A DNA stretch of 64,000 nucleotides from IMG/VR virus record IMGVR_UViG_3300011113_000257, positions 32,001 to 96,000 of that record. One strand, written 5' to 3'. The position numbers were made by a program, and so were the translations under genes. Below the pieces are notes generated by a model, which saw only the letters and a list, made by a program, of their open reading frames with translations, searched no databases and had not been told where the DNA came from. Source of the DNA: a virus. Shown piece by piece: positions 10,930 to 42,662 of this stretch (its first letter is position 1; each line of letters opens with the position of its first letter).

Positions 10930-11056
10930 CGCTAGACGCGCCACCGAAAGGGGATAAGGTGACGCGCCTAACATTTATGAGTGGGGAGAAAGGGGGGGCA
11001 ACCCCACTCGTATTCGGAGCATAGGGAGAAGGGAGAAAACCCTCGCTCTACGAACT
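10930..11056 (-). ncRNA. Candidate three-hairpin small RNA with anti-Shine-Dalgarno loops
   Basis: Extended -10 TGCTAAAGT at 11062-11070; three stems with loops TTTTCTCCCTTCT, TTGCCCCCCCTTTCT and TTATCCCCTTTC; no ORF. Confidence 0.7.
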
Positions 11057-11204
11057 CCTCTACTTTAGCATAAAAAAATTTCAGTTATGCCTCCGTGTCG
11101 GAAAATTTAACAATCCCCACAAACTGACTTACTCGAAACCTTTTTCGAGTCAAGCCCAAACCTTTTACCGCATCTCCAACAATTAGTAAAGATAGTCACT
11201 ACCC

Positions 11205-11935
11205 TCACTCCCCAATCTCTGGAATGTCGTAGTCGTTCTGCCAACCGCACTTAGGGCAAGTCCAAACACCGCGCCCCCAGTCGTCAAAAGATACTTCCTC
11301 TGTACCCTCAAACTTGCAGTCAATCTCCGCGCCTGACTGAAACTCAATAATGCCTTTGCACTCTAGGTCATCAATCTCTGCTGAATCCGCGTAGAATCCT
11401 GAACCTCTTAGTGAACCTTCGTAACTCATTTTGTTTCCCTTCTTCTATCGCCCCTTGCGATAAATCTATTTAACCACATAATCTGACTAATGTCAAGTTA
11501 CTTGATAACTGTGCCTGTCCAACCCTCTGGAATTGAGTATTTAGTTTTTAGTGCCGTGTGAAAAGTGTCCACAACTATCTGACAAACACCGTCTAGTATC
11601 TCGTCACTCATTCCGTCAAGGTATGTCCGCAAGTTTTCCTGCAACTGTTCTTGCAATTCAAAAGTATTCATCTTGTTCTCCTTTCAAGAGTAAAGTTCCC
11701 CAACCCTAAATTTCCAAAACATCTAGGGGTGGGGAATCCTTTATTTGTCGTTGATACCTAACAAAGCGAAAATTTCATCTTCGTTCAAGACAGTAACCTT
11801 GTCGCCACTATCATCAACAATTTTTACGCTAGTTACACGGTAAGAGTTAGCAACCAAGTCACGAACTTCTTGCGCCGTGTTAGCGGTAAAACTGTACTCG
11901 TTATCTTTCGACTTCATTGTTACGTTGTAAGCCAT
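11205..11935 (-). CDS. Three small hypothetical genes (11205-11429, about 11500-11671, 11741-11935)
   Basis: Strong RBSs GAAGGGA and GAAAGGAG before each ATG. Confidence 0.65.
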
Positions 11936-11959
11936 TTCGTTCTCCCTTCTTGGCTCTAC

Positions 11960-12152
11960 CCTTCCCGCACTTTGCGGAAAAGTTTTCAGTTTATGAAGTA
12001 GGTAGGTGGCTCTCTCAACCACCTGTATGCGCTTCCCCACGCTTCCTATTCGGCTACCTACTTCAGTATTGACTGGCGAACTACGCACCGCACTCCAGTT
12101 GTAGTTTTCTTACCTAGTGCAAGACCAGTCAAGTCTTTCTCTATTTAGTTAT
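11960..12152 (-). ncRNA. Candidate structured RNA or long structured leader
   Basis: Perfect 12-bp stem 11994-12005/12054-12065 and 8-bp stem 12069-12076/12125-12132, each enclosing sub-helices; own promoter 12158-12187. Confidence 0.5.
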
Positions 12153-12188
12153 GACCCTAGTCTATCATACTAGGTTTGCTTTCGCAAG

Positions 12189-12267
12189 TCCCAAGAGTAG
12201 GAATCGAACCTACCGTGCCAAAGCGAGTGATTTACAGTCACCTTCCCCACCTTGAGGAATCCTTGGG
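12189..12267 (-). tRNA. tRNA-Tyr (GUA), atypical
   Basis: Acceptor CCCAAGG/TCTTGGG+A, anticodon loop CTGTAAA, T-arm GTAGG-TTCGATT-CCTAC, long variable loop; own promoter about 12286-12316; no encoded CCA. Confidence 0.8.
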
Positions 12268-12624
12268 GTTATTTAGTTATGGAACTAGTTTATCATACTA
12301 GTTATCTTTTTGCAAGTTCTTCGATTAATCTTGTTCGGCGTACAACATCTTTCGTACTCCAACCTTGACCAATCTCCGCGCAAGACTCCAAGTAGTAATC
12401 TAAGTCCTGAATTTCATCGTGAAGTTCGTTCACGGTGAGTTCCTCTACTGGTTTGTTTCTTGTAAGCATCTTTGCCCCTTTCGTTCCTCAAGTGTACAAC
12501 ACTTTCCTGACAAATGCAAGTCACGGGAAAAGATAATTTAGCGAAGGCGGGACTCAGAATAAAAAATTTCAGTTTTACCAAAAAAGAAAACCCCCGCAAT
12601 GCGCGAGGGCTTTCCATTTTTAGA

Positions 12625-13466
12625 TTAGTAGTTTTCGTTCACCCAATCCACAACGTCTTGCATTTTATCCGCGCTACGCGCTACCGCTAGAAAGTTTTCA
12701 TCTTCTAGTAATAGGCTTTCGTGAACAGTGGTCTCACCTGCTACGAAACCCAGTACGACTCTTAGATTAAGAGTTGATAGTAGTTGTCCTGTTGCCATTT
12801 TTTCACCCCTTTCCGTGTGATAACACGAGTCTATCATACCTACCTGACATTTGCAACCCTAACGCCCGAGCGTGGTGGGGCTAGTTGCCCCCACCACCGC
12901 ATTCGCCATCGGCGAATTCGAGACAACCGCCACAGCAGTCGTCACAAGTACGCACCCAGATAACATCTAGGGCAGGAATGTGTAGAGTTGAGTGAGTTGA
13001 GGTTGTGTTGCAGAATTGGCATTTGGACATTTGAAACCCCTTTAGGTTTAGTATCAAGACCCCTTGCCTTGATGAATCAAGTCTATCATACCTACCTGAC
13101 ATTTGCAAGCACATAAGAAAACCCCCTCCGTAGAGGGGGCTTTCCAAAGGGGTCGCGCTAGACGTTAAATAGTTTTTGCACGGCGGTTAGTGCCTTTATG
13201 TCTTTACCACCAATGTGCCAATCGTATTGACCGTAGTTAATTCCGCTTTCGTAGTTCTTCCAGTCGTAGATACTCGCGACAAATACTTCGCCAGTTGTTT
13301 CATCTTCAAACTTTAGCAACCATTCTGCCTGTACTTTATCTTCGGTATAGCCCAAGTAGTGTGGCTCTCCCAACTTTTCTACGATAGTCGCGTAGGTTGT
13401 TCTTACATAACCAAGTAGGAAAGTTCCGCTTGTGTCTACAGAATTACTTTTTTCTATGAGTTTCAT
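12625..13466 (-). CDS. Three single-gene cassettes (12625-about 12798, 12881-about 13030, 13158-13466)
   Basis: Each has a TGTCAG promoter, 5' hairpin and AAAGGG RBS; the last carries an ASIYDWK..WHIGG motif. Confidence 0.65.
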
Positions 13467-13624
13467 TTTTTCTCCCTTTCGTGGTATTTCCACTACCTAA
13501 AGTAAACCACTTTATCTGACAAAAGTCAAATCAAATTAAATCCCGCGTGTCCCTAAAAAATTTCAGTTTTACGTTCCCGCACAAAAAAAATAACCCACCC
13601 CGTAGGGTGGGCTACTTTTGTAGA

Positions 13625-14098
13625 TTAGAATCTGCGAGCGCAGACCGGGCCGATACCGCGAGCAACTGATACCTCATCAGTTAATTCACGACCGCAAGCG
13701 CAACATACGCCAAACTGGATACCGTAATCGCAAGCCTGTTCAAGAGTCATCTTGTCATCAGCCGAGATAGCACGGATGTAACTAGGGTCGTACTGGAATG
13801 ACCCACCAACCAACTTGGTTGCGTATGGGCGACCTGACGACTGCGAAATCTTAACGCGGTAGACAGAACCCTCCTTAAAGTAAACGCCGACCTCAAGGGC
13901 GACAACTGGCGCGGTGGTGCGTGGCTCACGCGGTGCGTATGGAAACGACCGCAAAGCGTCAATGACGGAACTAATTTCGCGCTTGGATAGCGCGGTGATG
14001 TCGCCTAAAGAAGCGCGGAACGTGTCCGAAACTGCGCGTGAAGCGAGCAGGGACTGGGCATACGAGATTTGGCTCTCGGTGGCTTGTGTTGTGTTCAT
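13625..14098 (-). CDS. DUF6011-domain protein
   Basis: C-terminal CCACGRELTDEVSVARGIGPVC; N-terminal ATESQI motif; leaderless promoter TTGACT-N17-TAAGGT-N6-ATG. Confidence 0.75.
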   Translation of the reverse strand: MNTTQATESQISYAQSLLASRAVSDTFRASLGDITALSKREISSVIDALRSFPYAPREPRTTAPVVALEVGVYFKEGSVYRVKISQSSGRPYATKLVGGSFQYDPSYIRAISADDKMTLEQACDYGIQFGVCCACGRELTDEVSVARGIGPVCARRF

Positions 14099-14476
14099 AG
14101 AACAACCTTATCAAACAACCTGATAAAAGTCAAGCCAACAACTCATAACTATTTTTTCCGGGCAGCGGCGGCGGCAGAACTGAAATTTTTTATTTCTCCC
14201 GCGCAAGAAAAAAATCCCCACCTTTCGGCGGGGTTCTTTCTTTGGTTTAGGCTCTGGTTAGAAAGCGTTTTCCCTCGTGGCGGTGGAACAATGCGATTCC
14301 GTAGCGGTGGGCTACTTCTTTTCCGCATAAGTAGCAATTTGCTTTCCCGTAAAGTTTTCCAAACATTTTGTTCTCCCTCTATCGGTTACTTCCTGCAACC
14401 TGATAAATCAAGTATAACACACTAACCTGACAAATGCAAGTTAGGTGCGCCAGCCGTAGCCAGCGCACCCGTAACC

Positions 14477-14821
14477 TTAAACGGCTAACCCAAATTCCTT
14501 TAGGAACTCTAATTGCTTTTCGGTAAGTCCAGTAGTTTCGCCCTGTCCGTCATTAGATGTAAGAAATACATCTCCAACGATTATGTCTGTACCAATTCCG
14601 TACTTGTCCCAGAATAACTGAGTTGCAATTCTATTTGGCTCTAGTCCAATTAGTTTGCCCTCTTCGTTTAGCCATAGGTCAATCTCTTCACCTACGACCG
14701 CGCACTCAATCCAACCGTCTACCGCGTTACGAATTACTTCGTAAGACTGTCCAACTGTGAACTCGCGAGTTTCAACTGTGCCGTCTACTCCAATGAATAG
14801 ACCCTTTGCTTTGTCGCTCAT
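14477..14821 (-). CDS. DUF3846-family protein
   Basis: VDGWIE, WLNEEGK..GL..N..AT and DIIVGDV motifs. Confidence 0.75.
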   Translation of the reverse strand: MSDKAKGLFIGVDGTVETREFTVGQSYEVIRNAVDGWIECAVVGEEIDLWLNEEGKLIGLEPNRIATQLFWDKYGIGTDIIVGDVFLTSNDGQGETTGLTEKQLEFLKEFGLAV

Positions 14822-15144
14822 TTGCTTCCCTTTCTCTGTGGTACTTCCACTAAAAAATAATAACACATCTCCCTGACATTTGCAAATTATCTTTTCCGCG
14901 TGTCCCCTGACCTAAAAAATTTCAGTTATCTAACTCAGCGCAAAAAGAACCCCGCACTTTCGCACGGGGAACTTTTTGTTTGGTTAAAGTATTTCTCCTA
15001 CTGTTGCTTCCTCGCAAGGGTCGCAAATCCAACCCTCTACTCCGTGCTGGTCAAAAGGAATCATAGTGTCCTTGCATTCAACGCATACAACGTATTTTGT
15101 CCCGTCTGTAGACGTAGCAACTAAACTATCTAATGCGTTCATCT

Positions 15145-17452
15145 TTACACCTCCCCTGCTTCTAAAGTTTCAAAGTAGTTGTTCACATCAACAATCGAGC
15201 AAGGCTCGCATTGTTCATAACCTCCGTCAAGACTGAACTTGTCTAGCGCGTTACCGCACTCTACGCACTTCTCATCTTCGCCTAGTGCTTCTTCCGCACC
15301 GCGTAGTAGCCATTCATCAAATCCTTGTAGCACTTTGCTACCTCCCTTTCTTGTATTCCCATTGTAGCGCATTAGCCTGACATTCGCAAGTTACCGCGCA
15401 AAAAGAAAGAGCGAGCCTTTCGGCTCGCCCCTCCTAGAGTTTAGTAAGTAGCAAAGGTTCGATTAGAGCCTAAGTCCTTAGCAAATTCGTAGATGTGTTC
15501 AAGGTTGATTGTTTTGCTTTCGCCCTTGTTGTTGAAAGCAACCGTGTCGCCTTGAAAGTAACGATACTTTTCCCAACCAACCGAGATAATTACCGCAACC
15601 CAGTCGTCTTGTAGGTGTCGCTTGAATACTTCTGCCCAGTCTACCTCGACAGTTTCATCTTCTTCTTCACTCCACACACTCCATAGGTTTGCTTCACCGT
15701 CTGGGTCAGCGTCAATAAATCCGTAAAGTGTTACGCCGTCTTTCTCTTGCGTAATTACTTCAACAGGATAGTTTGCAAGTTCTGTCTTAAACGCTTCCGC
15801 GTCTTTAACTGCAAAGTAGTTGCTTCGTGCCTGACCAAAAAATTGAGCCATTTCTTATCCCTTCCGCAAGTAAGCCCTTCTTACTCGCTGTATCTATAAT
15901 ACTAAATTACTTGACTATTGTCAAACTCTCCTTGTAAGAGTCCGCAACTTTTGCACACGAAATCATCTATCTCAAGTTCGTAAAAGTATCTGTGCTCGCA
16001 GTCTACGCGCCAAATTGAATAACACTCGCAAGCAAAACAACGGTGCTTATCTTCGCCGAGTTCGATTACCTCATCTTTTTGGATAATCCAATTACAAGTA
16101 TCACACCGAAAAGATTTCACTTTTTCATTCGAGTTGTTGCTGACGTAAATCCATTCCTCTGACATTAATCGTTCCCTTGTTCATAGCAGTTGTAGCAAGT
16201 CCAACCGCTTTCGATTAGGTCATCATCTAGCAAGTCGCATTGGCAGTTTATGGTGTCCGCGTTCATTAGAACACTCTCCCATACTCGTTTTCAACTACTG
16301 ATAAATCAACAGGTGATGTAACTTCCCATTGTTCGTATGGTGTTGGGTCGTAACTATCTCGGCATTCGTTACACCATAGTTCGGGAAACCAACGGTGCTT
16401 TTTAGACATTTCGGCGATTGGAAAGTCTTGTTCGCAATCCACGCAAAAATCGTTTTCTTCTGGTATTTCAACTCCAAGCCATTGTGTCATTTTGTTCTCC
16501 TTTTTGTTTTCGCGGGCTATCCGCTTAGTAATACTTTATCATACTATTTTGTTTGGTGCAAGTAGTAGGGGGCTTGCGCCCCCCACCGCATTTGCTAAAC
16601 GTATTCACATACTAGTTCTAGTAAATCCGCGTAAGTTTCTACCCCATTTAATAAGCCGTAGATAGCGTCTGTTAGTTCTGTAGAGTTCCTGATAGTTTCA
16701 ACTAGCAAACTTTCCTCAACTAGCAAGTCACCTGCAAGACAACGAATTGTCATTTCTGCACTCATTTTGGTTTCCCTTTCTTGTAAGGAGTTTCCTTACA
16801 TTTCTAATAGTACGGACTTTCTTGACATTTGTCAAGTGATTACGCAAACTCGTTTATTGCGTGTCGGCGTTGGGCAGACCTGTCACGATTACGGCGTGTA
16901 CGCCTATCCGCAAACTTTGCAGACTTTTGGTTTAGGACATAGTTCCCTCGACCTGTCACTAGATTGTCTAGTGGACTCTTGCGCTTAGCCATCTCTGACT
17001 CCTTTCGATAAATCTATTGTAGCACACTTCCCTGACATTATCAAATCGAACCGCGCTCGGCGTGTCGCAATTTAATAATCTCCGTAAAAAATTTCAGTTA
17101 TGAAAATAAGAAAACCCCCACTTTTGGTGGGGGCTTCCTTGCCTTACATAAATCGGTGGTAGAACTCTACTACCTTTTCCCGTGCCTCTTTCCAGTCTGC
17201 CGTAGCGCAGATAGTGACTGTCTGCTCGATACCATTCACATCATCTACCCAACCTATGGCTTCATAGATAGTCACGCCGTCATCATAGTCATAGACCCTG
17301 ACTTCGGCATCTACCGTTTCGTTCATCTCGATAGTGATTGCGTTGTCTGTTACTGGGTTAAGTAGCACCCGTGTAATTCGACTTGCTGGGTGGCGTAGCG
17401 TGGCTAGAAATAATCTAGTGGTTTCGCTGTATGTTGGAATTGTAGTTTCCAC
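15145..17452 (-). CDS. Run of small acidic / Cys-rich hypothetical genes (incl. 15145-about 15336, 15441-15851, 15902-16165, 16266-16490, 17144-17452)
   Basis: ORF track plus cassette signals; several further ORFs under 60 aa with clear RBSs. Confidence 0.65.
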
Positions 17453-17585
17453 TTTTGTTTTACCCCTTTTGAGTTATCTACCGCGCCTTGCGGTATGTAG
17501 TAATCGTATCATACCTTTATGACATTTTCTGTATTTCGAGAAAATAAACCCCGCCCGTAGGCGGGGCTTATCTCGAGTATCCGCA

Positions 17586-18101
17586 TTAGCAGATAGAGAA
17601 CCCACCGCTTTCGGCTAAGAACTCCGCGAACTCGCGTACGTTCTGAACATCAAACGGGTAACTTGCTGCCCAATTCTCTTTTGAGCCAACACCGTCACAA
17701 CCATTACACCAGCCGAACTCGCGCCCGACAAGGATAGCCACTTCTGGTGATAAGGCTCGGTCAGGCTGACCCGCACTCACGCCAACTTCATCTGTACGAA
17801 TACCTGTTGAATTGCAGTGCTTACAATCCTCGCGTGGTAAATCCGCAATCTCTGCGTAGTAGTCTTTTTGGTACTGGGCGGTATGTCCTCGACCAATCTT
17901 TTCAAACAAGATGTTTGATAAAGCAATCGCGCCTTCGGCGTTTAGCCCATCTCCATCATTGTATTCACCACTTACTTCTGAAGTAAGTTCAGGTGCAACT
18001 TCAATGCAGTAATTCCAAAGTGGTCGCCACCACCATACATTGTTGCGGAAGTATTCACCGCGCTCTGTTGTCGGTGCAGTTCCAAAAACGTCCATTCCCA
18101 T
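17586..18101 (-). CDS. Hypothetical protein with DnaJ-like CxxCxxxG Zn motifs
   Basis: MGMDV..YFRNNVWWWRPLW; CKHCNSTG and CNGCDGVG; start set by RBS GAAGGGA. Confidence 0.7.
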   Translation of the reverse strand: MGMDVFGTAPTTERGEYFRNNVWWWRPLWNYCIEVAPELTSEVSGEYNDGDGLNAEGAIALSNILFEKIGRGHTAQYQKDYYAEIADLPREDCKHCNSTGIRTDEVGVSAGQPDRALSPEVAILVGREFGWCNGCDGVGSKENWAASYPFDVQNVREFAEFLAESGGFSIC

Positions 18102-19297: not shown

Positions 19298-21656
19298 TTA
19301 TTCGACTTCGTTATCCGCAAGGATTTGCTTGACGGCTTCAATCGCTTCCTCTAGAGTTTCGCAAACTTCCCACCACTCATCGTCAGCCTTTGGCTCATAG
19401 AACTCAAACCAATTATTATTCACCCAGACATCTTGCTCTGCGTGTGCCGTGTTGAACTCTGCCAACTTCGTGTCCGTGTCAATCCCTGCGGAGATTAGGT
19501 CGCTTGTGTAACGCCAGACATCTCCGTTAGGTAGGTTGATACGCATCTCGCCGTTAGACCCAATGTGAAACTCTCGGTCGCCCGACTTAACTACGGCTAG
19601 AACTTCCCAGCCGTTAGTCCAGCAATAGAACGCCGAGTCTGTCTGCTCTGGGTTCTGCTCTACTAAATACTCAACCGTGTAATCCATCACGCCACCTAGT
19701 CCTCGTCTGACTCAACTCGGACACCGCAAGTAAAACACTTTAAGTTTTCCCAGTCAGGGTACTCGTAGCAAGTATCGTGGATACAGTCGTTAGTATCGAA
19801 CACCGCGCCAAGTAGTTCCAACAAACCGTCAAGGTACTCTACGGGGAACGCTTTCATCTCGCCGTACTTTGACGGTAAGGAAACAACTCCCGACATAATG
19901 TCCTCTGAAAGTTCCGCAAGAAAGTCAAACTGCTCTTGCAACATTTCATAGTCAATGTTTTTCATTTTGTTTTCTCCCCATTGAGTTCTAGCAACACCGC
20001 ATTTAGAGTGTCGTAAAGTTCTTCGTCTTTTGCGTAGTTCGCATCATTGTCAATCGCGTGAGTCCACTCATTTGTTGCCGTGTCGTAAACAGTTCCGTCA
20101 AAGTAACGAGTTTCATTTTCAATGTTCCACTTGCCTGTTTCGGTATCGAAACACACTACATAGTGATGCTGTGTAGTTGAGGGGTAGTAACCCTGCTCGC
20201 CTTCACAAGTTTTGCAGAACGGTGTGCAGTCGAAACCGCCCCCGTGTTCTGGACACTCAACCATTTCTAGTTTGCTCATTTTGTTTCCCTTTCTTAGAGT
20301 GAGTCCCTCTCGCTCTATGATAAGTATACGCCCCTAGCCTGACATTTGTCAAATCAGGGGCGCACACCGCGTGTTACCAATTCAGTTCTTCGCCATTCTC
20401 GTCTTGGAAGATTAAGTCACTCGTATCTGCCGTGTGACCCCAACCGCAACTAAAGTCATTCTCAATCCACACTTCAACTCTCTGCATAATGTCCCACAGG
20501 GTTATTTCACTATGTGGAGTTTCAGTTTCCGCGTGTATGTCGTTAGCAATCTGGTTTACGTCATACGAGACAACTTTCATCACGTTAATGCGTTCTGGTA
20601 ATTCTCTCATTATTTCTCCATTCCGTGTCCAACGTGGACTAATCTAATTTCTGGCTCGCCGACTTCGATTCCCCAGCCATTCTTTAGTAGTTCTAATGCT
20701 TCTTCTTCGCTAGTGCAAAGTTTAAGATTCTTAGAGTCAATCTCTAATGTCTTGATTACTTGAAACTCGTAACGCATTTGGTTTCCCTTCCTTAGCAAGC
20801 CCTTCTTGCTAATAACTCTATGATACATCAATACCCTGACATTTGCAACTTGAACACGAAATTATCTTTTCCCGTGCCTTCGCTGAGTTCCGCATAAAAA
20901 ATTTCAGTTTTGTGAAACCAAGAAACCCCTAGCCTTTCGGCTAAGGGCATCTTTTGGATTAGGCGGTGATTAGTCCCTCGTCTATCAAGGTGCTGGCAAT
21001 TCTGCCGTAAGAACCTTGCAGTTGCCACGCTAGTCGCGTATCAACTAGTTGCTGAAACAAGTTAATTGTTTCTTCTCTGTCAAGATTACCTTCTTCGAAC
21101 TCGATGATTAAGTTCGTGATGTCGTGTAGTGACATTTGCTTCCCTTTCGTATTCGCCGTACTTCGGCTTATGTAGTAAGGATACACTAAACCCCTGACAT
21201 TTGTCAAGGGCTTAGTGTCCCGTGTCTTTAGTCTTCTTCTTCGTACTCATCTTCGTCTTCGTCTTCGTCTTCGTCTTCGTCTTCACGGCATCTGTCGCAG
21301 ATTGAGTCATAGTCCGCGCCAGACTCGCCACATAGTTGGCAAAACTCGTCTTCGTATCCCTGTGGGATTATGCTTTCGTATCCCTCGTTAGGGTCGTCCT
21401 CGTTAGTTGCTACTGATTGCACAAACTTTAGCCCGCAAGAGCCTTCGTACCAACGCTTGACTAGGGTAAGCATTTCGTCAGGGGTTGAGTCGGTAACAAG
21501 GAAACTTCCGTCCTCGCCATAGCCCCACTCTGCACTCTGCTTGACTTGCTGGTCGTCTTTCAAGATGTAAATCTTGTGACAACCATCAAACGAGATGCCT
21601 TTGGCTTCGTCAAGTTCTGCCTTAACTTCGTCCCAGATGTCTTGGAAAGTAGTCAT
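19298..21656 (-). CDS. Run of small acidic hypothetical genes (19298-19690, 19696-19965, 19962-20279, 20374-20610, 20610-about 20777, 20959-about 21135, 21228-21656)
   Basis: ORF track and RBSs; the last gene ends in a poly-Asp/Glu tract encoded by (GTCTTC)n at about 21250-21285. Confidence 0.65.
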
Positions 21657-21889
21657 TTTGATTTCCCTTTCTATCAGTAAGCCTTTCTTGCTGATAAAAC
21701 TATCATACCACACTATCCTGACATTACCTAATCGGGGCTTTAGCGCGTGTCGCAGAAAAAATTTCAGTTATCTAAAATTACGAAACCCGTACCAAAAAAA
21801 TTTCAGTACGGGCTTCGCTTAGAAACTGTCGGAAGGCTGACACACGCTGGAAGGACGATACCCCCCGACAGGGCTTATGGGTTATTCAA

Positions 21890-23698
21890 TTATCCGTTAC
21901 GGTTTCCCATAGCGGTTAGTGCTTTCGCACACGCTTGTCCGATAGCGTTGGACGCTTCCGTTGGAGAAGCCACACCGCTTAACGGCTCTACCGTTGTCCC
22001 CCTTAGGAGACTTCTGGCACTTGAACCGTTGTCGAACGGTATCCATACTACCGCCACGCCGTTGCTCTCACACTGCGACACCCAACTCCGAGCCTTTTGG
22101 GTCTCGTCGTAAGTGTACACGCCGTCGGATACCACGACTAAAAGCCTAGCACCGTCACCGTTGAGCAGGTTCAACTCGCCGTCTATTGCCTTGAACGCCT
22201 TGTCAAACTTTTCCGTACCGTCTGGTGCTGTGTACACCGTTACGTCCGTTAAGTGCTGACCAGACTTGAGCGTAGGGAACACGTCGTCGCCGTAGTACAC
22301 CATCGCGCACTTGCCTTGGACTCGCCGAGTTGCTTCCGACATTACCCACGCCGTTGTCGCCATCGGTTGCATCGCCGAATTCATCGAACCGCTAATGTCT
22401 ACCATCACGCCGACCTTTAGTGTTGGCTCGTCCGTTGTCTTACGGACTCGCTTACGCCAAGGTTGCGCCGTTGGTTGCATACCTATCGCCTTGTGTGCTT
22501 CGTTCTGCATAGCCGAGCGAGTTCGTAGCCGTCCACCGGGAACAATGCTACGCACTTCAACAACATCGCGCTCGCGATACTTTGCACGCTCTAATGCGCT
22601 CGCCACTTTCACCGCGCTGATACGCTCGTCTGCCGTAGGCTTACGAACCTCTGTTGCATAACTACGAGTACGAGTAGATGCTGATGGACCAGTACCTCGC
22701 CCGAAAACTTCTTGAGCAACTTTAACATTCTCACGACTTTGCTTTGCACTGTCCGCGCGATTCTTAACTTCCTCTTTCCATTCCTCTGACTCCTCTTGGT
22801 CTGCAAGTTCGGAGTAGTTAGACACCGCAACATTTTCAGATGCTTCTTTCAACTTCTCAAGTAACTCTTTTAATGCTTCGCCAACTTCAGATGTAGACTC
22901 ACCACTTCCACCAGAAGTACTTTCACTACCAGAATTATCCTCGCCACGTTCGTTTGCAAGGTCGCGAACAATCTGTGCCCACTCACGCGCTAATGGATAA
23001 ACAGGTTCCATGTTTCGATGGTCTGTGTGTGTAATGAAACGCTCGATAACACTGCATAACTTTTCAACAGTTTCGTTGCCTAAGTATTCCTCTATAAATT
23101 CTGTAACCTCTAGAACATCATCACGCTCTAAAATTCCACCAATGATTCGACCATGCACTAGTCCAACTAAAGTTGCAATGTTTGAAACACTACCCTGTGT
23201 CAAATCCTCTGACTCAAAATCTGCAATAACAATTTCCATTGCACTTGAGCATAGAAATGCGCGATACCGAGCATCAAGCAAAATACCTTGTGCTTCGATT
23301 CGTGATTCCTCAAGAAGCATTAGTGCTTCGTACTCGTCTGACTTTAATGCTTCGTAAGCAGACTCTAAACTCCACTTCGAGAAACGAGCGTGAAATGCTT
23401 CGTGCATTATCGCGCCAGTTGCCTTTGGAAATTCGTACTGCGTTGAGCGTTGATTAATGTCGCTAATGTGTTCTGGCTTAATGCCAAACCCGAAAGCAAT
23501 TTCTGTGTTCACTTCAATTTCTGCAATCGCTGGCTTGTAGCACGCTGGCGCATTGCTACCTGCAACAGGAGATGCAAGTCCAACTAAATCACCGCGACCT
23601 GCGATTGAGTTTGCTAGTTGCGCAATCTGCGAACCAACTGCATACCATTCTGGATGTCTTTCACCAGAAGTCTTACTGTGTGTGTCAATGTGTGCCAT
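21890..23698 (-). CDS. VWA-domain protein with HExxH metallopeptidase-like N-terminus (CobT-like)
   Basis: HEAFH, LEESRIE; MIDAS DISGSM, GT, VVVSDG; start set by RBS GGAAGGAG. Confidence 0.85.
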   Translation of the reverse strand: MAHIDTHSKTSGERHPEWYAVGSQIAQLANSIAGRGDLVGLASPVAGSNAPACYKPAIAEIEVNTEIAFGFGIKPEHISDINQRSTQYEFPKATGAIMHEAFHARFSKWSLESAYEALKSDEYEALMLLEESRIEAQGILLDARYRAFLCSSAMEIVIADFESEDLTQGSVSNIATLVGLVHGRIIGGILERDDVLEVTEFIEEYLGNETVEKLCSVIERFITHTDHRNMEPVYPLAREWAQIVRDLANERGEDNSGSESTSGGSGESTSEVGEALKELLEKLKEASENVAVSNYSELADQEESEEWKEEVKNRADSAKQSRENVKVAQEVFGRGTGPSASTRTRSYATEVRKPTADERISAVKVASALERAKYRERDVVEVRSIVPGGRLRTRSAMQNEAHKAIGMQPTAQPWRKRVRKTTDEPTLKVGVMVDISGSMNSAMQPMATTAWVMSEATRRVQGKCAMVYYGDDVFPTLKSGQHLTDVTVYTAPDGTEKFDKAFKAIDGELNLLNGDGARLLVVVSDGVYTYDETQKARSWVSQCESNGVAVVWIPFDNGSSARSLLRGTTVEPLSGVASPTEASNAIGQACAKALTAMGNRNG

Positions 23699-23835
23699 CT
23701 CTGGCTCCTTCCTTTTGTACGCCCCTTTGACGTACTCTGTGAGTTTATCATACCTTCTTGATATTTCCAAATTGAAGGGTGGGGAGTCGGGAAACACTCA
23801 CGAAAACCGACTCCCCTTAGCAAGGATGAAAGGGA

Positions 23836-24867
23836 CTAAATCCTTGCTGGCTTGTATTCCGCACCAAACACGCGAGACAGAACATCTGCCACGATTGGTC
23901 TGTCCATCTCTGGTGCAGAAGCAAGTAAGTTCGAGATACCAAACGGAACCCCGAATGTTGTAACGATGTCGCGGAACGCTAAAAGTTCGCGCATCTGTGG
24001 AGCCCACGAGACTTCACCAGACTCTTGTTTCTTAGCAAGATTCTGCGCAACAGTAACGAGGTTGCTAGGTACACCTAAGGTGCGAGCAAGTGACCAGTCA
24101 GTTGCCATCTCTGCTTGAACAGTAAAGCGAGATAGTAAGGCTTCTGAAAGTCGTACTCCCGGAGCATTAGGGTTAGTTGCACCCACAACATAAAAGTCAG
24201 GGTGAACCTTAACAGTACCTCTGTCAGGATTAGCAGTGACAGTAATTTCGCCACGTCCATCCATCACGCCATACAAACCTGAAAGTTGCTTAGGGTCAAT
24301 CAGACCAATCTCGTCAATGAACAAGACTGCACCTTCCTCTACTGCTCGCACAAGTGGACCATCTACCCACTCGAAACCACCAGCAGGATTCTGTACGAAC
24401 CCACCAAGGAAGTCTGACATTTCGATGTCAGCAGTTCCAAGTACTGTGTACATATTTCCACCAAACGCTGCTTCGACTAATGCAGTCTTACCAGTTCCCG
24501 GTGCGCCATAAAGCAACGCGAACATTGGCGAGCCAACTTTGTCTGTGACAGACAAGGTAGTTGCTTCACGAGCCTTGCGTAATGTTGCAACATCTTGATG
24601 TTCACCCCAAGTACGAGCGTGGTACACACTTCCATTTGGACGAATGTATTGACTACTACTTGATTCAAGTGTGACACCTGATGTTGTAATTGGTGTCGCT
24701 ACGCGAGCAACGCGAGGTGCGCGTTCTACGAAACGACCTTGTGGTAAAACCTGCGAGATTACTCTCATAGATGCTTCTGTTGATACTGACTGCGCAACCA
24801 TGTCGTCTAACATGGAAGTGAATTCAGTTCCCCACTTTGAATAAATTTCATTTTCTTTGATGCTCAT
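23836..24867 (-). CDS. MoxR/CobS-type AAA+ ATPase
   Basis: Walker A GAPGTGKT, WVDGPL, Walker B LFIDEI, ATNP, LSEALLSRF. Confidence 0.9.
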   Translation of the reverse strand: MSIKENEIYSKWGTEFTSMLDDMVAQSVSTEASMRVISQVLPQGRFVERAPRVARVATPITTSGVTLESSSSQYIRPNGSVYHARTWGEHQDVATLRKAREATTLSVTDKVGSPMFALLYGAPGTGKTALVEAAFGGNMYTVLGTADIEMSDFLGGFVQNPAGGFEWVDGPLVRAVEEGAVLFIDEIGLIDPKQLSGLYGVMDGRGEITVTANPDRGTVKVHPDFYVVGATNPNAPGVRLSEALLSRFTVQAEMATDWSLARTLGVPSNLVTVAQNLAKKQESGEVSWAPQMRELLAFRDIVTTFGVPFGISNLLASAPEMDRPIVADVLSRVFGAEYKPARI

Positions 24868-24883
24868 AATTTTCAGTCCCTTT

Positions 24884-25351
24884 CTACGCTGTGAACATTT
24901 CTGGATAAGATAATGCAGTTCGAGTCTGGTTGATTCGATGCACGACCTTAGTTGGAGTCTTACCTTCTGTTACATCTGTCAAGTCTTTCTGTGAAACTTC
25001 CACAAAAAATGGCTTGCCAATAAGTACGCTACTAATTGAAACGCGCTTCATAAACCACGCTAGTGTTTGAAGTCGCTCCTCGCGATGGTTCTCTGATGTA
25101 ACCCCTGTTGCTGGGTCTACGAGACTACGCTGAAGTGCTTGCACCTTCCATTGTTTCTTTGGCTGTGATGCCGAAAGACGACGATAGTAGACACGCGCTG
25201 TCGAAAAATTTCCAAGTTCATTCCAACCATCTGGAGTAATGAACATCTGAAAAATCTGTTGGTATTCATTCTTGAATTCCGCGTACAAGGCTGTGCCCTG
25301 TACTTTCTTTTCTGGGTCTGTAAGCAGACCAAGAGGTGTTTCTGTTGACAT
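24884..25351 (-). CDS. Hypothetical protein, first gene of the MoxR operon
   Basis: RBS GAAAGGA; promoter TTGACT-N17-TAAACT at about 25398-25426. Confidence 0.7.
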   Translation of the reverse strand: MSTETPLGLLTDPEKKVQGTALYAEFKNEYQQIFQMFITPDGWNELGNFSTARVYYRRLSASQPKKQWKVQALQRSLVDPATGVTSENHREERLQTLAWFMKRVSISSVLIGKPFFVEVSQKDLTDVTEGKTPTKVVHRINQTRTALSYPEMFTA

Positions 25352-25475
25352 AGTGAGTATTTCCTTTCTTTATGTCTTTTGTCCCTGTGACATTTCTAGT
25401 TTAGCATAACGCTATGATGGAGTCAAATCGGGGTAGGAGTATGTCTAAGGAGACCTACCCCGACCTGACTTCTAA

Positions 25476-26122: not shown

Positions 26123-26311
26123 TTAGAGTTCTTGCTCCCACTTTTCGATGTCAAACATTTCCCAGATTTCATCATCTGTGAAATTTTCCTTCAACCAAAT
26201 AGCGGTGCGCTTTTGGACTACTGGGTTTTCGTCTACTGGCTTAGCAGTTCCGAAGATGCTACCCATAAGGGCTTGGTATGCGTGTGCGTTTGCTTCATGC
26301 GGTTTGTTCAT
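26123..26311 (-). CDS. Hypothetical protein
   Basis: Promoter embedded in the end of the upstream gene; AGGAG before ATG. Confidence 0.6.
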   Translation of the reverse strand: MNKPHEANAHAYQALMGSIFGTAKPVDENPVVQKRTAIWLKENFTDDEIWEMFDIEKWEQEL

Positions 26312-31009: not shown

Positions 31010-31020
31010 ACTAACTCCTT

Positions 31021-35207: not shown

Positions 35208-35852
35208 ATGCATACATACGACGTAAGACAGATAGAATCCAAAGAGACACACGACTACCTTCTTAACATCCACTATGCAAAGCGTCTCCCACAGATTATG
35301 TACGCATACGGTCTATTCCGAGATGACAACCTTGTTGGTGTAATTACTTATGGTCGTCCACCTGCACCGTCTGTGTCTAAGGGCGTTTTAGGAACTGAAC
35401 ATAAGAATCTAGTTCTTGAACTTAATCGTTTATGTCTTAAAGACAATCTTAAAAACGAAGCGTCACAACTTGTCGCAGGTTCTTTCAAACTTCTTCCTAC
35501 TCCACTTGCAATTATTTCTTATGCAGATACATCACACGACCATCTCGGTATTGTGTATCAAGCAACAAATTTTCTCTATACAGGGCTCTCATCTAAACAT
35601 ACAGACTGGGCAGTAAAAGGAATGGAAGGGACTCACACAAGAACTTTTAATCACATCGCTGATGCAATACCCGGAGATAAAAAGAATCTCGAAAAGATTA
35701 AAGAACTTTATGGTGACCGCTTCTACTACATTGACAGACCAAGAAAACATCGGTACATTATCTTGTTAGGGAGCAAGTCAGAAAAAAGAACTCTTAAAAG
35801 TCTTTTGAAGTACCCTGTTCTTCCATATCCAAAAAGGAGTAAAGATGCTTGA
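35208..35852 (+). CDS. Mom-family (GNAT) DNA modification protein
   Basis: IHYA, ELNRL, ISYAD..H.G.VYQATNF.Y.G and KHRY motifs. Confidence 0.8.
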   Translation: MHTYDVRQIESKETHDYLLNIHYAKRLPQIMYAYGLFRDDNLVGVITYGRPPAPSVSKGVLGTEHKNLVLELNRLCLKDNLKNEASQLVAGSFKLLPTPLAIISYADTSHDHLGIVYQATNFLYTGLSSKHTDWAVKGMEGTHTRTFNHIADAIPGDKKNLEKIKELYGDRFYYIDRPRKHRYIILLGSKSEKRTLKSLLKYPVLPYPKRSKDA

Positions 35853-36134
35853 TAGCAAAGGTGATTACCACCCTAATGACCCATCTGCAGAGAACGAAAG
35901 ACTGTACAGAATTTTAGATAAACTGAACAGTATTAGAAAGCACTCTCAAGTACGAGGAGACTCAGAGCAGTTTATTCTTGGCATCTTGCTAAGTACTGAC
36001 ATCGTAACTGCCGAAATACGTGGAGAAATTCATAAAATAGATGGCAGTAATACCCACCCCGACCAAATACCCCTAATCTAGCACTGCTAGTATTTTAACT
36101 CTTACTCAAATACCACCCCCAAAAAAGGATACTT

Positions 36135-38189: not shown

Positions 38190-38506
38190 TGGCAATACTG
38201 AATCTAAAAACAAACGAGTTCGACAAGTTTATTGCCAACGCAGAAGTCCCAGTAGTCGTTGATTACTGGGCAACTTGGTGTTCACCTTGCAAGATGGTTC
38301 TACCAATTCTTGAAGAACTTTCTACTGATTATGAAGGCAAGGTAATTATTGCTAAGGTAGATGTTGACGCAGAACCAGAACTTATGGATGGTATCCGTTC
38401 TGTTCCGACAATCCGCGTCTTTCAAAAAGGCAAGAAAGTCAAGGAAATTGTTGGAGCAAAGAATAAGCCAGCGTTGCTCAAGGAACTAGAAGACTACTTA
38501 GGGTAG
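38189..38506 (+). CDS. trxA: Thioredoxin
   Basis: WCSPC active site; SVPT cis-Pro motif. Confidence 0.9.
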   Translation: MAILNLKTNEFDKFIANAEVPVVVDYWATWCSPCKMVLPILEELSTDYEGKVIIAKVDVDAEPELMDGIRSVPTIRVFQKGKKVKEIVGAKNKPALLKELEDYLG

Positions 38507-38515
38507 AATACTAAT

Positions 38516-38704
38516 ATGCCTACATATGATTACACCTGCTCAAATGAGCACGTCTACACAGAAGAGCGTTCAATCCACGAGGACCAGAAGATAACTGAGT
38601 GTCCAGAATGTAAAGAAACTCTTAAGCGTATTTTTATTGCTGTTCCAGTTTCTTTTCAAGCACCTGGCTTCTACGCAAAAGAACGAAAGAGTTTAGGACT
38701 GTGA
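38516..38704 (+). CDS. FmdB-family Zn-ribbon protein
   Basis: MPTYDYTC..H..CPEC..F..GFY. Confidence 0.85.
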   Translation: MPTYDYTCSNEHVYTEERSIHEDQKITECPECKETLKRIFIAVPVSFQAPGFYAKERKSLGL

Positions 38705-38970
38705 GCCTCCAACCACTAACAGGTTCAGGTATCCAATTAGATACAGTAACCAATACTGCTCCAGTAGAACCCGGAGACCACGACAAGTTTGCGCACTATG
38801 CTCCAAAAGATGAGATTACCTACGCACTTATTTACGGCGTTCCAATCATTGCTCTTTGCGGTAAGCAGTGGATTCCATCCAGAGACCCCAAGGGTTTTAG
38901 TATCTGCCCTGCTTGCAAAGAAATTTACGAACAACTATCTGAAGACAATCCTGACGACTACATGTCTTGA
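38701..38970 (+). CDS. DUF3039 family protein
   Basis: GDHDKFAHY..G.P..ALCGK.W.P.RDP....CP.CKEIY. Confidence 0.85.
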   Translation: MSLQPLTGSGIQLDTVTNTAPVEPGDHDKFAHYAPKDEITYALIYGVPIIALCGKQWIPSRDPKGFSICPACKEIYEQLSEDNPDDYMS

Positions 38971-39046
38971 TAAACTAGACGTTGACATACGTTTGGCATA
39001 GTAAATAGGACTGTGCCTGTTTGTAACTGGAAGTACAGGCAGGAAT

Positions 39047-39994
39047 ATGAAGAAATACAATGCGCTTATCTGCGCACTCATTTTAGTTATTGGAGCCTCG
39101 GCTGTCCCAGCCTTAGGTCTTAATAGAGGCGATTACCAATTAAAAGAATCTAAATCTAACCAAGTAATTAAAACTGGTAAATGGACTACTTTAAATTTTA
39201 AGGGCGATGACTCCCTTAAAAGAACAAAAAACTACCGAACCCTGTTCTGCACAAAGGTTCATCTTGATACCAGAAAAGGTTCTCCCACCTATGTGAAGGT
39301 ACGCTTTGCTCGCGTCAAAGGCGGACCAAATGACACCACTGGAACAAATACTTGGGTCACCAAAGGGTTTACAGGTAGATATTGGCAAGGCGCTCTGTGC
39401 TGGACTATAGACACAAAATACCCGATTGTAGCCCAAATCAAGATTGAAGGACCTAAGAAAACCTACACTTCACACCTTCGTCAGTTCAAGGCTTGGTCTC
39501 CACCTTATGAACTCCCGGCTGATATGACAACACCCGCTCCAACTGCTACGGTGGATGTAGTTCAATAGAGTAAAATAAAACTCTACTTAGAAAGGACGAC
39601 AATGACTGTTGAATATGTTTCATGGAAAGCAGGCGACCCAAAGATTAAACCTGCTCCACAGGTAATCAAGCCTAAGACTTGGACACAACTAGATTTTGGT
39701 GCACAAGATTCAATTGTTCCTAAAAACTCAGGTATTGCTAACTGGGCATTTTACTTAAACGTAAGCAAAGATGGCGGAGCAAAGCATATGAAGATTCGCT
39801 TTACTCGCGATATCGGAACTAAGGATGCAGACTTTACTGGTCAGCGTATGCTCGACCTAACATTAGACAACATCCACTCAGGTACTTGGTTCTTTAAGGC
39901 TAACAAGGGTCAACCAGTTGGTCTTGAGGTTTACCACGAAGGAACAACCGCAATGACAATCATCACTCGTGAATTGAAGATGTGGATTCCGTAA
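39047..39994 (+). CDS. Two tandem paralogous beta-rich proteins (39047-39568 with signal peptide; 39602-39994)
   Basis: Shared Q.IK...WT.L.F...D and RF.R.....D.TG motifs. Confidence 0.6.
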
Positions 39995-40547
39995 CCTTTA
40001 ATCTGAAGAGGCGGTAGATTTTTCTACCGTCTTTTCTTTTTTTCCAAACACGGAAGAATCCAAGTTCAGAACCAATCACGCGAACTCTTTTATAAACTCC
40101 TGTGCGGGTTCCTTCTGTATCAGAACCTGCTTGGTCACTTGTTGTATCACCCTCGACAACTTCATAACCAACTGTTAACCCCCACTTGCGAACCACCCCA
40201 ACAACAATACCTACATGCGTTGCTCTTCCTTCTTTCTCGAAGTCATAGAACGCTAGGTCTCCTTCTTTAACTCTCCACCATTGTATCTGTTCAGAGTTTT
40301 TAAGTAAGTGTTCATAACCAATATTACAAGACGCAAACCCTTTTTTACTTGAAACTTCAACTAACTCACTTGCACCGATTTTTGCAAAGCACCACGAAAC
40401 GAACATGGCAGAGTATGGATTGTTGTTTAACCCGTACCACTTTCCGTACTTACTATCTCGATTAGGTCCGTTGGTGTAACCAACCTCTTCTAAAGCGACA
40501 CTTATAAGTTCGGACTTGGAAGTTTTAATCTTCGGAGGATTCTGCAT
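39963..40547 (-). CDS. CHAP-domain protein with catalytic Cys replaced by Ser
   Basis: KYG.WYG..PYSAMFVSW, GDL.F.D, HVGIV, EGDT. Confidence 0.75.
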   Translation of the reverse strand: MQNPPKIKTSKSELISVALEEVGYTNGPNRDSKYGKWYGLNNNPYSAMFVSWCFAKIGASELVEVSSKKGFASCNIGYEHLLKNSEQIQWWRVKEGDLAFYDFEKEGRATHVGIVVGVVRKWGLTVGYEVVEGDTTSDQAGSDTEGTRTGVYKRVRVIGSELGFFRVWKKRKDGRKIYRLFRLKVTESTSSIHE

Positions 40548-40857
40548 TTTCCAGTTTCTTTTGCTCTTTACGTTCTTTCACAACATTCTCGACTGTCTTA
40601 TTCTTCCAGTGTACCGTCTTTACTCTGGACATATAGAACGAACGAAACACGGAGTACCCTTTTCGACCACCAACAACATCAATCCATTCAGCAGTTGGAG
40701 TCTTAACATGCTTAACAAATCTAAATCTACCTGCCTCACCAGTAATAGATAGTTCTGTACCAGCAACTACAGTTCGACCATTAACTTGAATCTCATTCTT
40801 TACTGTCCAAGTATCTGGATATGCTTTGGTTTTTCCCTTGCTAGATTTTTTCATCAT
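40525..40857 (-). CDS. Conserved actinophage hypothetical protein
   Basis: GE.GRFRF.KHV..EWID..FRSF; leaderless TGTCAGG-type promoter at 40864-40892. Confidence 0.7.
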   Translation of the reverse strand: MMKKSSKGKTKAYPDTWTVKNEIQVNGRTVVAGTELSITGEAGRFRFVKHVKTPTAEWIDVVGGRKGYSVFRSFYMSRVKTVHWKNKTVENVVKERKEQKKLENAESSED

Positions 40858-40944
40858 AGTTAAATCGTATCATACCTTCCTGACAAACGCAAATCCCCTG
40901 CGAGTTACAAGGTCTAAACTACTTTTTATGATACCGTTTACTCT

Positions 40945-42021
40945 ATGCCTGAAGTATCAATACCAAAGAGTGTACCAACTGCTGATGACTTATTTGGTGC
41001 AAAGACGAAACAACTTGCGCGTTTCTGCGAAGAACCAGCGTGGTCTGCCTATAACCCGTCTATTTGCTACACCGAAGAGCATGGCTACTTGGTACTCCTA
41101 CGCTCCTCAAACGGCTGGCTACGCGACCACAGACCAGAGTGGCAAGTAGAAACAGGTGAAGAACTTACCACCGAAGATTCTTATGAAACTCCCGGAGAAT
41201 GGTATCAGGCTTCATATATTAATTCCGTTTTAGGAACAGAGAAGTATTTTAGAAATAGAATGTTTCTTGCAAGTCTAAACACAAAAACACTTAATCTTTC
41301 TTACTTGAAAGAAATAGACCTAACTCAGGCTTACGCACAAGCCCCAGCAAAACTTATAAGAGGAATTGAAGATGGAAGACTCTACTACGACGGAGAAACG
41401 CTACGAATCTCTGCGACGGTATTTGAAATTGGGCACATTAATGTTGCTCGTATTTGTTCTGTTGAACTGGACTTAAGCGGAGATAGCCCACGCGGTGTTT
41501 CTTTTGAGATGTTTGATTCTCCTATTAATGAAGACACCGTTGAGAAAAACTGGATGCCTGTTCACAAGTCATCTATTTTTAATCCAGATGATGTTAATTT
41601 TGATTATCTCTATTCTTCAGGAAAGACTTACACGATTAAAGACCACTCCCTCAAAGAAGTTGGTGGACCAGCACCATCCGTTAGAGGTGGCTCACAACTT
41701 ATCGGTTTAGAGAATGGAACTATGTTAAGCATTGTTCATCAGTGCGTTTCAGCCGAGTACATCAGATTTGCTAACCTAAGCAAGGAAGCACTATTCCGTC
41801 GTCGCTATGTTCACCGCTTTATGCAATACGACGAAAAGGGAAGAATCATTAAAGTTTCCGATATGTTTAACTTCCTAAACAAGTCAATAGAGTTTGCAGG
41901 TGGAATGGCAATCCACGAAAACAAACTGCTAGTTAGTTTCGGTGCCCTAGATTCATCAGCACACATAGCATCCATCCCCCTTAAAAACGTCTTGGCGAAT
42001 CTTCGTCCTCCTCGTATTTAA
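40945..42021 (+). CDS. Five-bladed beta-propeller glycosidase/phosphorylase-like protein (GH130-like)
   Basis: YNPSI, EDGRL, EKNWMP, RGGS and IEFAGG motifs. Confidence 0.65.
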   Translation: MPEVSIPKSVPTADDLFGAKTKQLARFCEEPAWSAYNPSICYTEEHGYLVLLRSSNGWLRDHRPEWQVETGEELTTEDSYETPGEWYQASYINSVLGTEKYFRNRMFLASLNTKTLNLSYLKEIDLTQAYAQAPAKLIRGIEDGRLYYDGETLRISATVFEIGHINVARICSVELDLSGDSPRGVSFEMFDSPINEDTVEKNWMPVHKSSIFNPDDVNFDYLYSSGKTYTIKDHSLKEVGGPAPSVRGGSQLIGLENGTMLSIVHQCVSAEYIRFANLSKEALFRRRYVHRFMQYDEKGRIIKVSDMFNFLNKSIEFAGGMAIHENKLLVSFGALDSSAHIASIPLKNVLANLRPPRI

Positions 42022-42066
42022 GTCCTATGAAGTCGACAAAATCGAACTTTACATTATAGAGGAACA

Positions 42067-42444
42067 ATGGTACTTAGCGGAGAAGACGACGACAACGAGT
42101 CTGAAAAAGATGTAGAAGATGTAATTGACTTCCTCGTTGCAACAGGTGCTTTAGAACTCACCTCTATAGATAAAAACGGAGACCCTGTTTACAGGATTAC
42201 TAGTATTTGTAAAGACTTGTTTCCCGATTTGTATTATGAACATATGAGACAAGCAGATGACACCTCCTTTGCTTTATGGCAAAAAGGTTTACTAGAAATT
42301 GCTTTTGGTGAAGATGGTACTAACTATGTCACGATGACCGCAGAGAACTACTTAAAGTATTTAGATATTGCTGACGAGTTATCCGAAGAAGAGGAAAGCG
42401 TTATGTTTGTCTTAATAAATAAGAACATCTTGGACGCTCAGTAA
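42067..42444 (+). CDS. Acidic hypothetical protein
   Basis: ORF track. Confidence 0.6.
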   Translation: MVLSGEDDDNESEKDVEDVIDFLVATGALELTSIDKNGDPVYRITSICKDLFPDLYYEHMRQADDTSFALWQKGLLEIAFGEDGTNYVTMTAENYLKYLDIADELSEEEESVMFVLINKNILDAQ

Positions 42445-42482
42445 AACTTGACACCACTCTAGGCTTTTTGTAGCCTATACAT

Positions 42483-42662
42483 AGTTCTTGATGTATTAGG
42501 TGTTTTCTGCCAGTTCTACTAATACACCAAGACTTTTCGCAGAAATGTGGTTTGTTCTCCTTTCCTACATTTTTTTGGAAGCGGGTTGCTCCGCCACTTG
42601 CGAACACGGAGCATATATAAAAACCGCCCCACCGAATTTAATTCTGCGTAGGGCGGTTTATT
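42483..42662 (+). ncRNA. Candidate three-hairpin small RNA with anti-RBS loop, plus terminator
   Basis: Promoter TTGACA(42448)-N17-TAGCCT(42471); three stems; loop 2 is TTTGTTCTCCTTTC; terminator 42621-42663. Confidence 0.7.

Follow-up and report, generated by a model that had tools for sequence, protein, structure and literature searches.

The DNA described in this report is a 64,000-nucleotide window, bases 32001-96000 of the 110,857-bp phage record IMGVR_UViG_3300011113_000257, and its subject is a group of RNA hairpins with long loops at five non-coding sites of that window, numbered here 1 to 5. The phage is a freshwater actinobacterial phage, and its portal protein is nearest to those of Actinomycetia phage DSL-LC01 and of large Microbacterium and Arthrobacter phages. 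A near-identity DNA search of the deposited phage collection returned no close relative, and a search of IMG/VR with the AAA_5 ATPase encoded at 23836-24867 returned 80 related loci with 55-97% identity. The minus strand carries the genes between ~6 and 31 kb, so sites 1 to 4 are read here as minus-strand RNA; site 5, flanked by convergent genes, is read as plus-strand RNA. A reading of the same sequence made earlier, the original prediction, proposed that loops of this kind pair with ribosome-binding sites (RBSs), and it suggested looking for covariation of the two across related phages. Such covariation is present for the hairpins in the untranslated 3' regions (3'-UTRs) at sites 2 and 3, in about 40 relatives and with p<5e-5 in each of three tests, and it is the main result reported here.

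Hairpins are present at all five sites, as had been predicted. Site 1 has three, with loops of 16, 15, and 12 nt, and the 133-nt RNA that contains them has a folding energy of -63.4 kcal/mol (z = -7.5 relative to shuffled sequence). Site 2 has a stem of 7-11 bp and a loop of 24-32 nt (z = -1.4), at site 3 a 12-nt loop sits on a 9-bp stem and a 16-nt loop on a 10-bp stem (z = -5.1), the 16-nt loop of site 4 is carried by a stem of 17 bp (z = -7.7), and site 5 has four hairpins with loops of 13-21 nt (z = -2.5), the folds of sites 2 and 5 being weaker relative to shuffled sequence than those of sites 1, 3, and 4. On the sense strand the loops are C/U-rich (UUAUCCCCUUUC, UUGCCCCCCCUUUCU, UUUUCUCCCUUCUCCC, UUAGUCCCUUUC, and UCUCCUUAG), with the exception of UUUUCGUGAGUGUUUC in hairpin B of site 3, and most of them resemble the 3' tail of 16S rRNA, which in actinobacteria reads ...CCUCCUUUCU-3'.

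The original prediction had set these loops apart from the short-loop terminators elsewhere in the window. Short-loop terminators do occur, with UACG tetraloops on 7-bp G+C-rich stems at 13122-13139, 13594-13611, and 17549-17566; a stem of the same kind at 7100-7117 carries UAAG on the sense strand. Long loops, however, are not specific to complements of RBSs, since other long-loop hairpins hold the -35 box of a promoter. In hairpins at 20329-20362 and 21183-21218 the loop or the 3' arm holds GATTTGACAAATGTCAG, the -35 box and spacer of the promoter that follows, and such compact terminator/promoter modules, the site-4 hairpin at 25421-25470 included, are kept in relatives. The definition of a canonical intrinsic terminator (G+C-rich stem, loop of 3-8 nt, U-tract) is not matched at the five sites, where the loops have 12-32 nt. 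The sequence after hairpin B of site 3 is ACCCUUCA, and that after site 2 is UUUCUAAG; the site-5 hairpin at 42545-42570 does carry a U7 run.

Sites 2 and 3 belong to a conserved group of three neighboring minus-strand genes. The first gene of a two-gene operon, gene-1, encodes 155 aa (24884-25351), and the second encodes the ATPase (23836-24867; Pfam AAA_5). A gene for a 602-aa protein follows (21890-23698), for which Pfam gave no family. Two hairpins, kept in all relatives, lie downstream of the ATPase gene and make up site 3. The 12-nt loop of hairpin A (23819..23848, minus strand), UUAGUCCCUUUC at 23839-23828, holds the ATPase stop codon, and hairpin B (23781..23816, minus strand) presents its 16-nt loop UUUUCGUGAGUGUUUC on a G+C-rich stem of 10 bp. 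Site 2 (21826..21871, minus strand) is the hairpin at the 3' end of the gene for the 602-aa protein, with the loop GGGGUAUCGUCCUUCCAGCGUGUGUCAGCCUU. An antisense open reading frame behind hairpin A was considered and ruled out, as no plus-strand frame of at least 50 aa runs from the TTG at 23844.

Each of the two loops of site 3 is complementary to the translation-initiation region (TIR) of a different cistron of the same operon. The loop of hairpin A matches the ATPase TIR segment GAAAGGGACUGA (24873..24884, minus strand) over 10 nt, or over 12 nt if one G-U pair is allowed, and the loop of hairpin B matches the gene-1 TIR segment GGAAAUACUCAC (25353..25364, minus strand) over 12 nt including one G-U pair. 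The duplexes have calculated energies of -18.3 and -18.4 kcal/mol, respectively, compared to -7.2±2.0 and about -7 kcal/mol for shuffled loops, and in both cases 0 of 500 shuffled loops did as well. The relatives were sampled as representatives with less than 90% protein identity to one another, and permutation tests compared matches to the TIR of the same phage with matches to the orthologous TIRs of other phages. The hairpin A region matches its own ATPase TIR over at least 8 nt in 9 of 44 representatives, compared to 1.2% for non-self TIRs (p<5e-5), and the hairpin B region matches its own gene-1 TIR in 19 of 40, compared to 11.5% (p<5e-5). The words matched by hairpin A vary by lineage (GAAAGGGACU, AAGGGAGU, GGGAGGAUGG, ACAGGGAGA, CCAAGGAGU, GGAAGGAA, and GAAGGAGU) and extend to flanking bases outside the Shine-Dalgarno (SD) sequence; typical words for hairpin B are AAACACCCA, GGACACCCA, ACACCCAA, and CAACCUACAA. 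The subclade L005-L009, in which hairpin B still matches the gene-1 TIR, is a natural loss-of-loop variant of hairpin A and can serve as a control.

The same relationship holds at site 2. In 25 of 41 representatives the 3' region of the ~600-aa gene matches its own TIR over at least 8 nt, compared to 20% for non-self TIRs (p<5e-5), and the mean longest match is 8.22 nt for self and 6.51 nt for non-self, with matches of up to 14 nt. The words involved include UUGACGGAAGG, UGACGGAAGGAU, GAAAGGACAAG, and the 14-nt CAAAGGACAAACAA. The loop is bipartite: one part, GUCCUUCC, is anti-SD and faces the SD, and the other, GUGUGUCA, faces a leader box, UGACACAC, in several relatives.

Site 1 is of a different kind. 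The segment 10926..11058 of the minus strand, ~130 nt long, is the only part of its neighborhood that DNA comparison still detects in relatives whose ATPases are 66-75% identical, and it folds into hairpins H1 (~11055-11012, loop UUUUCUCCCUUCUCCC), H2 (11009-10979, loop UUGCCCCCCCUUUCU), and H3 (10968-10935, loop UUAUCCCCUUUC). A covariance model, R1, for which six sequences were used, detected additional copies in two more contigs; the homologues, at seven further loci in relatives, all score 97-136 bits against it. A search of IMG/VR for the exact 17-mer of loop 1 returned the contigs already known, plus unrelated coding matches. In hairpins 1 and 3 both sides have changed at 12 of 27 base pairs, and 95.8% of cells are paired, compared to 32-45% in slid registers; by eye, hairpin 2 has four different stems among the homologues. 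The loops stay nearly invariant while the stems differ (UUUUCUCCCUUCUCC, CCCCUUU(C/U), and UUA(U/A/C)(C/U)CCCUUU(C/U)), and insertions and deletions among the homologues indicate that the RNA is non-coding.

Upstream of every site-1 homologue an extended -10 element, TGnTAnnnT, lies at the same place. In this phage the presumed promoter (11062..11086, minus strand) consists of the box AACTGAAATTTTT (11086-11074), which occupies the -35 position, and of the extended -10 TGCTAAAGT (11070-11062), and most relatives have a U-tract after hairpin 3. Taken together, the sequence points to a conserved small RNA that would be transcribed independently. The box AACTGAAATTTTT is a wider feature of the early region: it recurs ~20 times on the minus strand between 6864 and 29345, almost always directly after a terminator and typically ~45 nt upstream of a -35 of the GATTTGACA type (examples are at 11086, 12574, 13568, 14927, 17099, 19253, 20909, 21769, 21808, 27965, 29297, and 29345). 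A role in defining early cassettes, as an UP-like element or as the binding site of a factor, is possible. A tRNA-Tyr (GTA) gene also lies within this region, at 12188-12267 on the minus strand.

The possible targets of the small RNA are the early genes, whose TIRs are stereotyped, reading [AG]GAA(A)GGGAAAC(A)AAAAUG at minus-strand gene starts between 11205 and 27454; other genes have AAGGA(G). This pattern is reminiscent of the start-associated sequences known from cluster K mycobacteriophages, and in the relatives G003, G004, and G006 the early TIR reads (A)CAAGGGAGAA(A)..AUG. Complements of at least 7 nt to a loop of the small RNA are found in 21 of 42 early TIRs and in 8 of 86 other TIRs (Fisher P = 7e-7). 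Of the TIRs in the seven genomes that carry the small RNA, 22% have an SD of the AAGGG type; the share is 5% in three related genomes in which no copy was found. G003, G004, and G006 each have 8-12 early TIRs with a match of at least 9 nt to one of its loops, and almost all of these matches involve AAGGGAGAA(A), which is an exact complement of loop 1 over 9-11 nt. For the seven genomes together, the number of TIRs with a match of at least 9 nt is 46, compared to means of 13.6 with fully shuffled loops and 24.0 with shuffles that preserve the SD-complementary core, although the summed maximum of the latter just reaches the observed 46. Since its loops are broadly complementary to the early AAGGG-type SDs, we conclude from these comparisons that the small RNA would be a class-wide anti-SD RNA rather than a collection of guides for particular genes. 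Its three C/U-rich loops would imitate the 3' tail of 16S rRNA and bind the purine-rich SDs of early genes.

Site 4 (25421..25470, minus strand) is a 17-bp hairpin with the loop UCUCCUUAGACAUACU, and its 3' arm extends into GATTTGAC, the -35 box of the promoter that follows. The stem is conserved in relatives. No clade but the closest retains UCUCCUUAG, and the loops of the others are unrelated. Together with part of the stem, the loop complements the start region at 26311 over 11 nt, with a duplex energy of -12.7 kcal/mol (P = 0.086). This match is missing in the nearest relative, L001, and in L003 and L004 the loop shows only a 7-nt SD complement to the upstream TIRs. We describe site 4 as a probable terminator/promoter module whose loop match is unproven.

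Site 5 (42449..42662, plus strand) specifies an RNA that is conserved in three subclades, across which both sides have changed at 10 of 20 base pairs. It begins with a promoter-like sequence, TTGACA-17-TAGCCT, the second box of which is TATAAT in a near relative; the promoter scanner did not call it in this window. A first hairpin at 42484-42533 is followed by a terminator-like hairpin at 42545-42570 with the loop UUUGUUCUCCUUU, of the UUCUCCUU type, and the U7 run. A conserved linker, UUUUGGAGGCGCG, then leads to a hairpin with a GCGAACA loop (42587-42613), and a terminator ends the RNA (42621-42659). This second conserved RNA, one loop of which is anti-SD-like, is as likely to be a leader or attenuator as a trans-acting small RNA, because in relatives the RNA runs into a gene and because the GCGAACA hairpin is a 5' leader elsewhere. 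That hairpin occurs in several other phage groups (L150, L152, L154, L158, L167, and others) with the loop (C/G)CAC(U/C)(U/C)GCGAACA and a covarying stem; it is preceded by GUGGGUUG and sits in the leader of a gene with the SD AAAGGAGA. It has no Rfam family match and may be an undescribed leader motif.

The five sites appear to fall into three kinds that have one principle in common, a loop displaying the complement of an RBS, and we regard the following combination as probably correct: 3' hairpins directed at their own genes (sites 2 and 3), a class-wide anti-SD RNA (site 1), and the RNA of site 5 with the module of site 4. Loops of this type occur in 3'-UTRs (sites 2 and 3) as well as on a stand-alone RNA (site 1), as the original prediction held. 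In the three-gene module, the operon of gene-1 and the ATPase and the ~600-aa gene after it would give two transcripts that end in long-loop hairpins, and each loop would pair with a TIR of its own transcript: hairpin A with that of the ATPase, hairpin B with that of gene-1, and site 2 with that of the ~600-aa gene. Such pairing would most likely limit translation, either because one mRNA folds back on itself or because stable 3' fragments act on sister mRNAs, as in icaR of Staphylococcus aureus. A broader proposal, that an actinophage family has an RNA-only governor of translation, with a dedicated loop for each cistron of the module and a multi-loop small RNA acting over the early TIRs, is more tentative, and we hold it to be possible rather than probable.

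Several observations weigh against the combined explanation. The restriction to representatives with less than 90% protein identity is the sole correction for phylogeny in the permutation tests. In the subclade L005-L009 hairpin A has a loop of 3 nt with no complement to the ATPase TIR, and pairing of a 12-nt loop along its full length is sterically demanding. At site 2 the match to its own TIR in this genome is just 7 nt (GGAAGGA at 23706-23712), and the energy of that duplex is not significant (P = 0.25). Within the close clade, where the stems differ and the TIRs drift, the site-2 loop stays almost unchanged, so it is likely to be under some further constraint. For the small RNA, R1 gave 2 matches in 50 more distant contigs and none in the other 48, so either the RNA is restricted to a clade or those contigs are incomplete. 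The U-tract after hairpin 3 is poor in this phage, and the site-1 promoter is termed presumed above because the consensus promoter scanner does not call it. In this genome, moreover, the small-RNA loops do not match TIRs better than shuffled or core-preserving nulls, at variance with what had been claimed for them: 29 TIRs match over at least 7 nt, compared to 22 with composition-preserving shuffles of the loops (P = 0.17), and 3 match over at least 9 nt, compared to 5.9 with shuffles that preserve the CCCUU core.

The alternative that survives best is the one originally put forward, a genome-wide set of guide-like loops that recognize start regions in trans over 10-13 nt and would shut off, or time, SD-led early genes while leaderless genes escape; we consider it unlikely. 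The quoted complements of 10-13 nt exist, among them those of 11 nt between loop 1 and the TIR at 13466, between site 2 and 6285, and between site 4 and 26311, and the early TIRs, which are stereotyped and carry an excess of loop complements, speak for it too. In the second of these examples the site-2 loop complements the word UGGAAGGACGA, which lies within the TIR at 6285-6315 of the minus-strand gene 6016-6285. Word and loop are both conserved in four genomes (G000, G001, G006, and G007), but the whole leader is conserved with them and there is no covariation. The number of trans matches is that expected by chance: 128 x 128 comparisons gave 4 matches of at least 11 nt, where an estimated 2-3 are expected, and the best loop/TIR complements in this genome equal those of a complement-only control (10 versus 10 at 8 nt or more, 4 versus 2 at 9 nt or more), as they do in nine relatives, 10 genomes in all. 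The failure of the small-RNA loops against the core-preserving null here counts against gene-specific guides as well.

Pairing of 3' loops with their own units does not extend over the genome either. Among 332 3' hairpin loops of 10 genomes, 9 match their own unit over at least 8 nt, compared to 3.6 expected, and these come mostly from the gene-1/ATPase/600-aa module, which is why we do not regard the system as genome-wide; the apparent RNA-only brake on translation would take in this module and one or two small RNAs. Self and non-self are barely different when the 3' flank of every gene is compared with its own 5' region, the difference being marginal at 9 nt or more (4.2% for self, 2.6% for non-self). 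The proposal that many genes are leaderless, and would thus be immune, proved weakly based: a strict promoter-plus-start pattern gave only 6 candidates, several of which have an SD-led start just downstream.

It is also improbable that the hairpins are terminators or 3'-end stabilizers and nothing more, with C/U-rich loops that match purine-rich SDs by composition. Every hairpin does end a transcription unit and stands directly before a promoter, composition alone yields many matches of 7-8 nt, and some relatives manage with a 3-nt loop on hairpin A. Composition does not account for the fact that self TIRs are matched far better than the equally purine-rich orthologous TIRs of other phages, nor for matched words that include non-SD flanks and, in distant relatives, segments of the leader and start codon (CAACCUAC and CACCCAAUG). 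Besides, loops of 12-32 nt are unusual in terminators, and hairpin B lacks a U-tract.

Still less probable, and in our view very much so, is that the C/U-rich loops bind a protein, either ribosomal protein S1 or an RNA-binding protein of the phage, with the small RNA as a sponge, or that the small RNA is directed at host mRNAs. Identical repeated loop motifs are typical of protein sponges of the CsrB/RsmZ type; the loops of the small RNA are near-invariant while its stems vary, and in this genome they fit the TIRs no better than the core-preserving null. In relatives, by contrast, loop 1 is an exact complement of the early TIR over 9-11 nt at 8-12 genes per genome. In the 3' hairpins each phage has three different loop words, each of which tracks a different TIR, and this excludes a single protein specificity for them. 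The reading of the loop/TIR pairs as DNA operators or inverted repeats was rejected, given three different words per phage that each track a different gene.

We found no published description of such pairing in phages, and the nearest precedents come from bacteria. In Staphylococcus aureus, pairing of a UCCCC motif in the 3'-UTR of icaR with the SD on the same mRNA prevents initiation and gives rise to a site for RNase III (PMC3868564), and the hbs mRNA of B. subtilis is a second case in which the 5'-UTR interacts with the 3'-UTR (PMC5737220). As judged from complementarity, the phage genes of sites 2 and 3 would resemble icaR in having 3'-UTR sequence that is complementary to the SD or TIR of the same mRNA. 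They differ in that the motif sits in the loop of an operon-terminal hairpin 0-20 nt past the stop codon, and not in a long 3'-UTR, and in that a two-gene operon carries two hairpins, one for each cistron. The pairing site of the phage genes drifts among SD, spacer, and leader, and the support for it is covariation over about 40 lineages, where that for icaR is experimental. Stable terminator-proximal mRNA fragments such as CpxQ, DapZ, and s-SodF of Streptomyces base-pair with other genes; the phage loops differ from these in being complementary to the TIR of the parent gene itself.

The small RNA of site 1 has its closest counterparts in the cuckoo RNAs (αr14/NfeR1 and CcsR1-4; RF02344), which are ~123 nt long, have 2-4 hairpins with compensating stems and the anti-SD motif CCUCCUCCC in each loop, and occlude TIRs with these redundant seeds (PMC4615179, PMC10746234). 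It shares with them an architecture of three hairpins in 133 nt, with variable compensating stems and conserved anti-SD-like loops. Its loop motifs, however, are UCUCCCUUCUCC and CCCCUUUC, not CCUCCUCCC, and it comes from an actinobacterial phage, whereas the cuckoo RNAs are alphaproteobacterial. Rfam gave no match at gathering thresholds in the whole window; for the site-1 RNA the best match was the full-length ar14 model, with 24.6 bits relative to a gathering score of 58.8 (E = 0.015, 601 bases). Because motif, score, and host group all differ, we treat it as an analogue of the cuckoo RNAs and not as a member, and the resemblance is most likely convergent. The 6C small RNA (B11; RF01066) of Actinobacteria binds multiple mRNAs through C-rich hairpin loops without a chaperone (PMC6486639). 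Host phylum and C-rich hairpin loops are common to both, but site 1 has three hairpins rather than two, its C/U-rich loops mimic the 16S tail, and only loop 2, with a run of seven C, compares with the six or more C per loop of 6C. RF01066 was not listed for the site-1 region even at E<=10.

Few bacterial mRNAs are known in which both ends pair, icaR and hbs being examples, and each was found singly. Here, three neighboring phage genes have predicted end pairing that is backed by natural covariation over about 40 lineages, with a separate loop for each cistron, and these lineages are a ready set of natural compensatory mutants for the study of how a 3' end may control initiation. For Actinobacteria, in whose phages RNA regulation has hardly been studied, the small RNA appears to supply a phage counterpart of the cuckoo/6C class. 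In practice, the elements deserve annotation in actinophage genomes, and they could serve as compact, protein-free limiters of expression.

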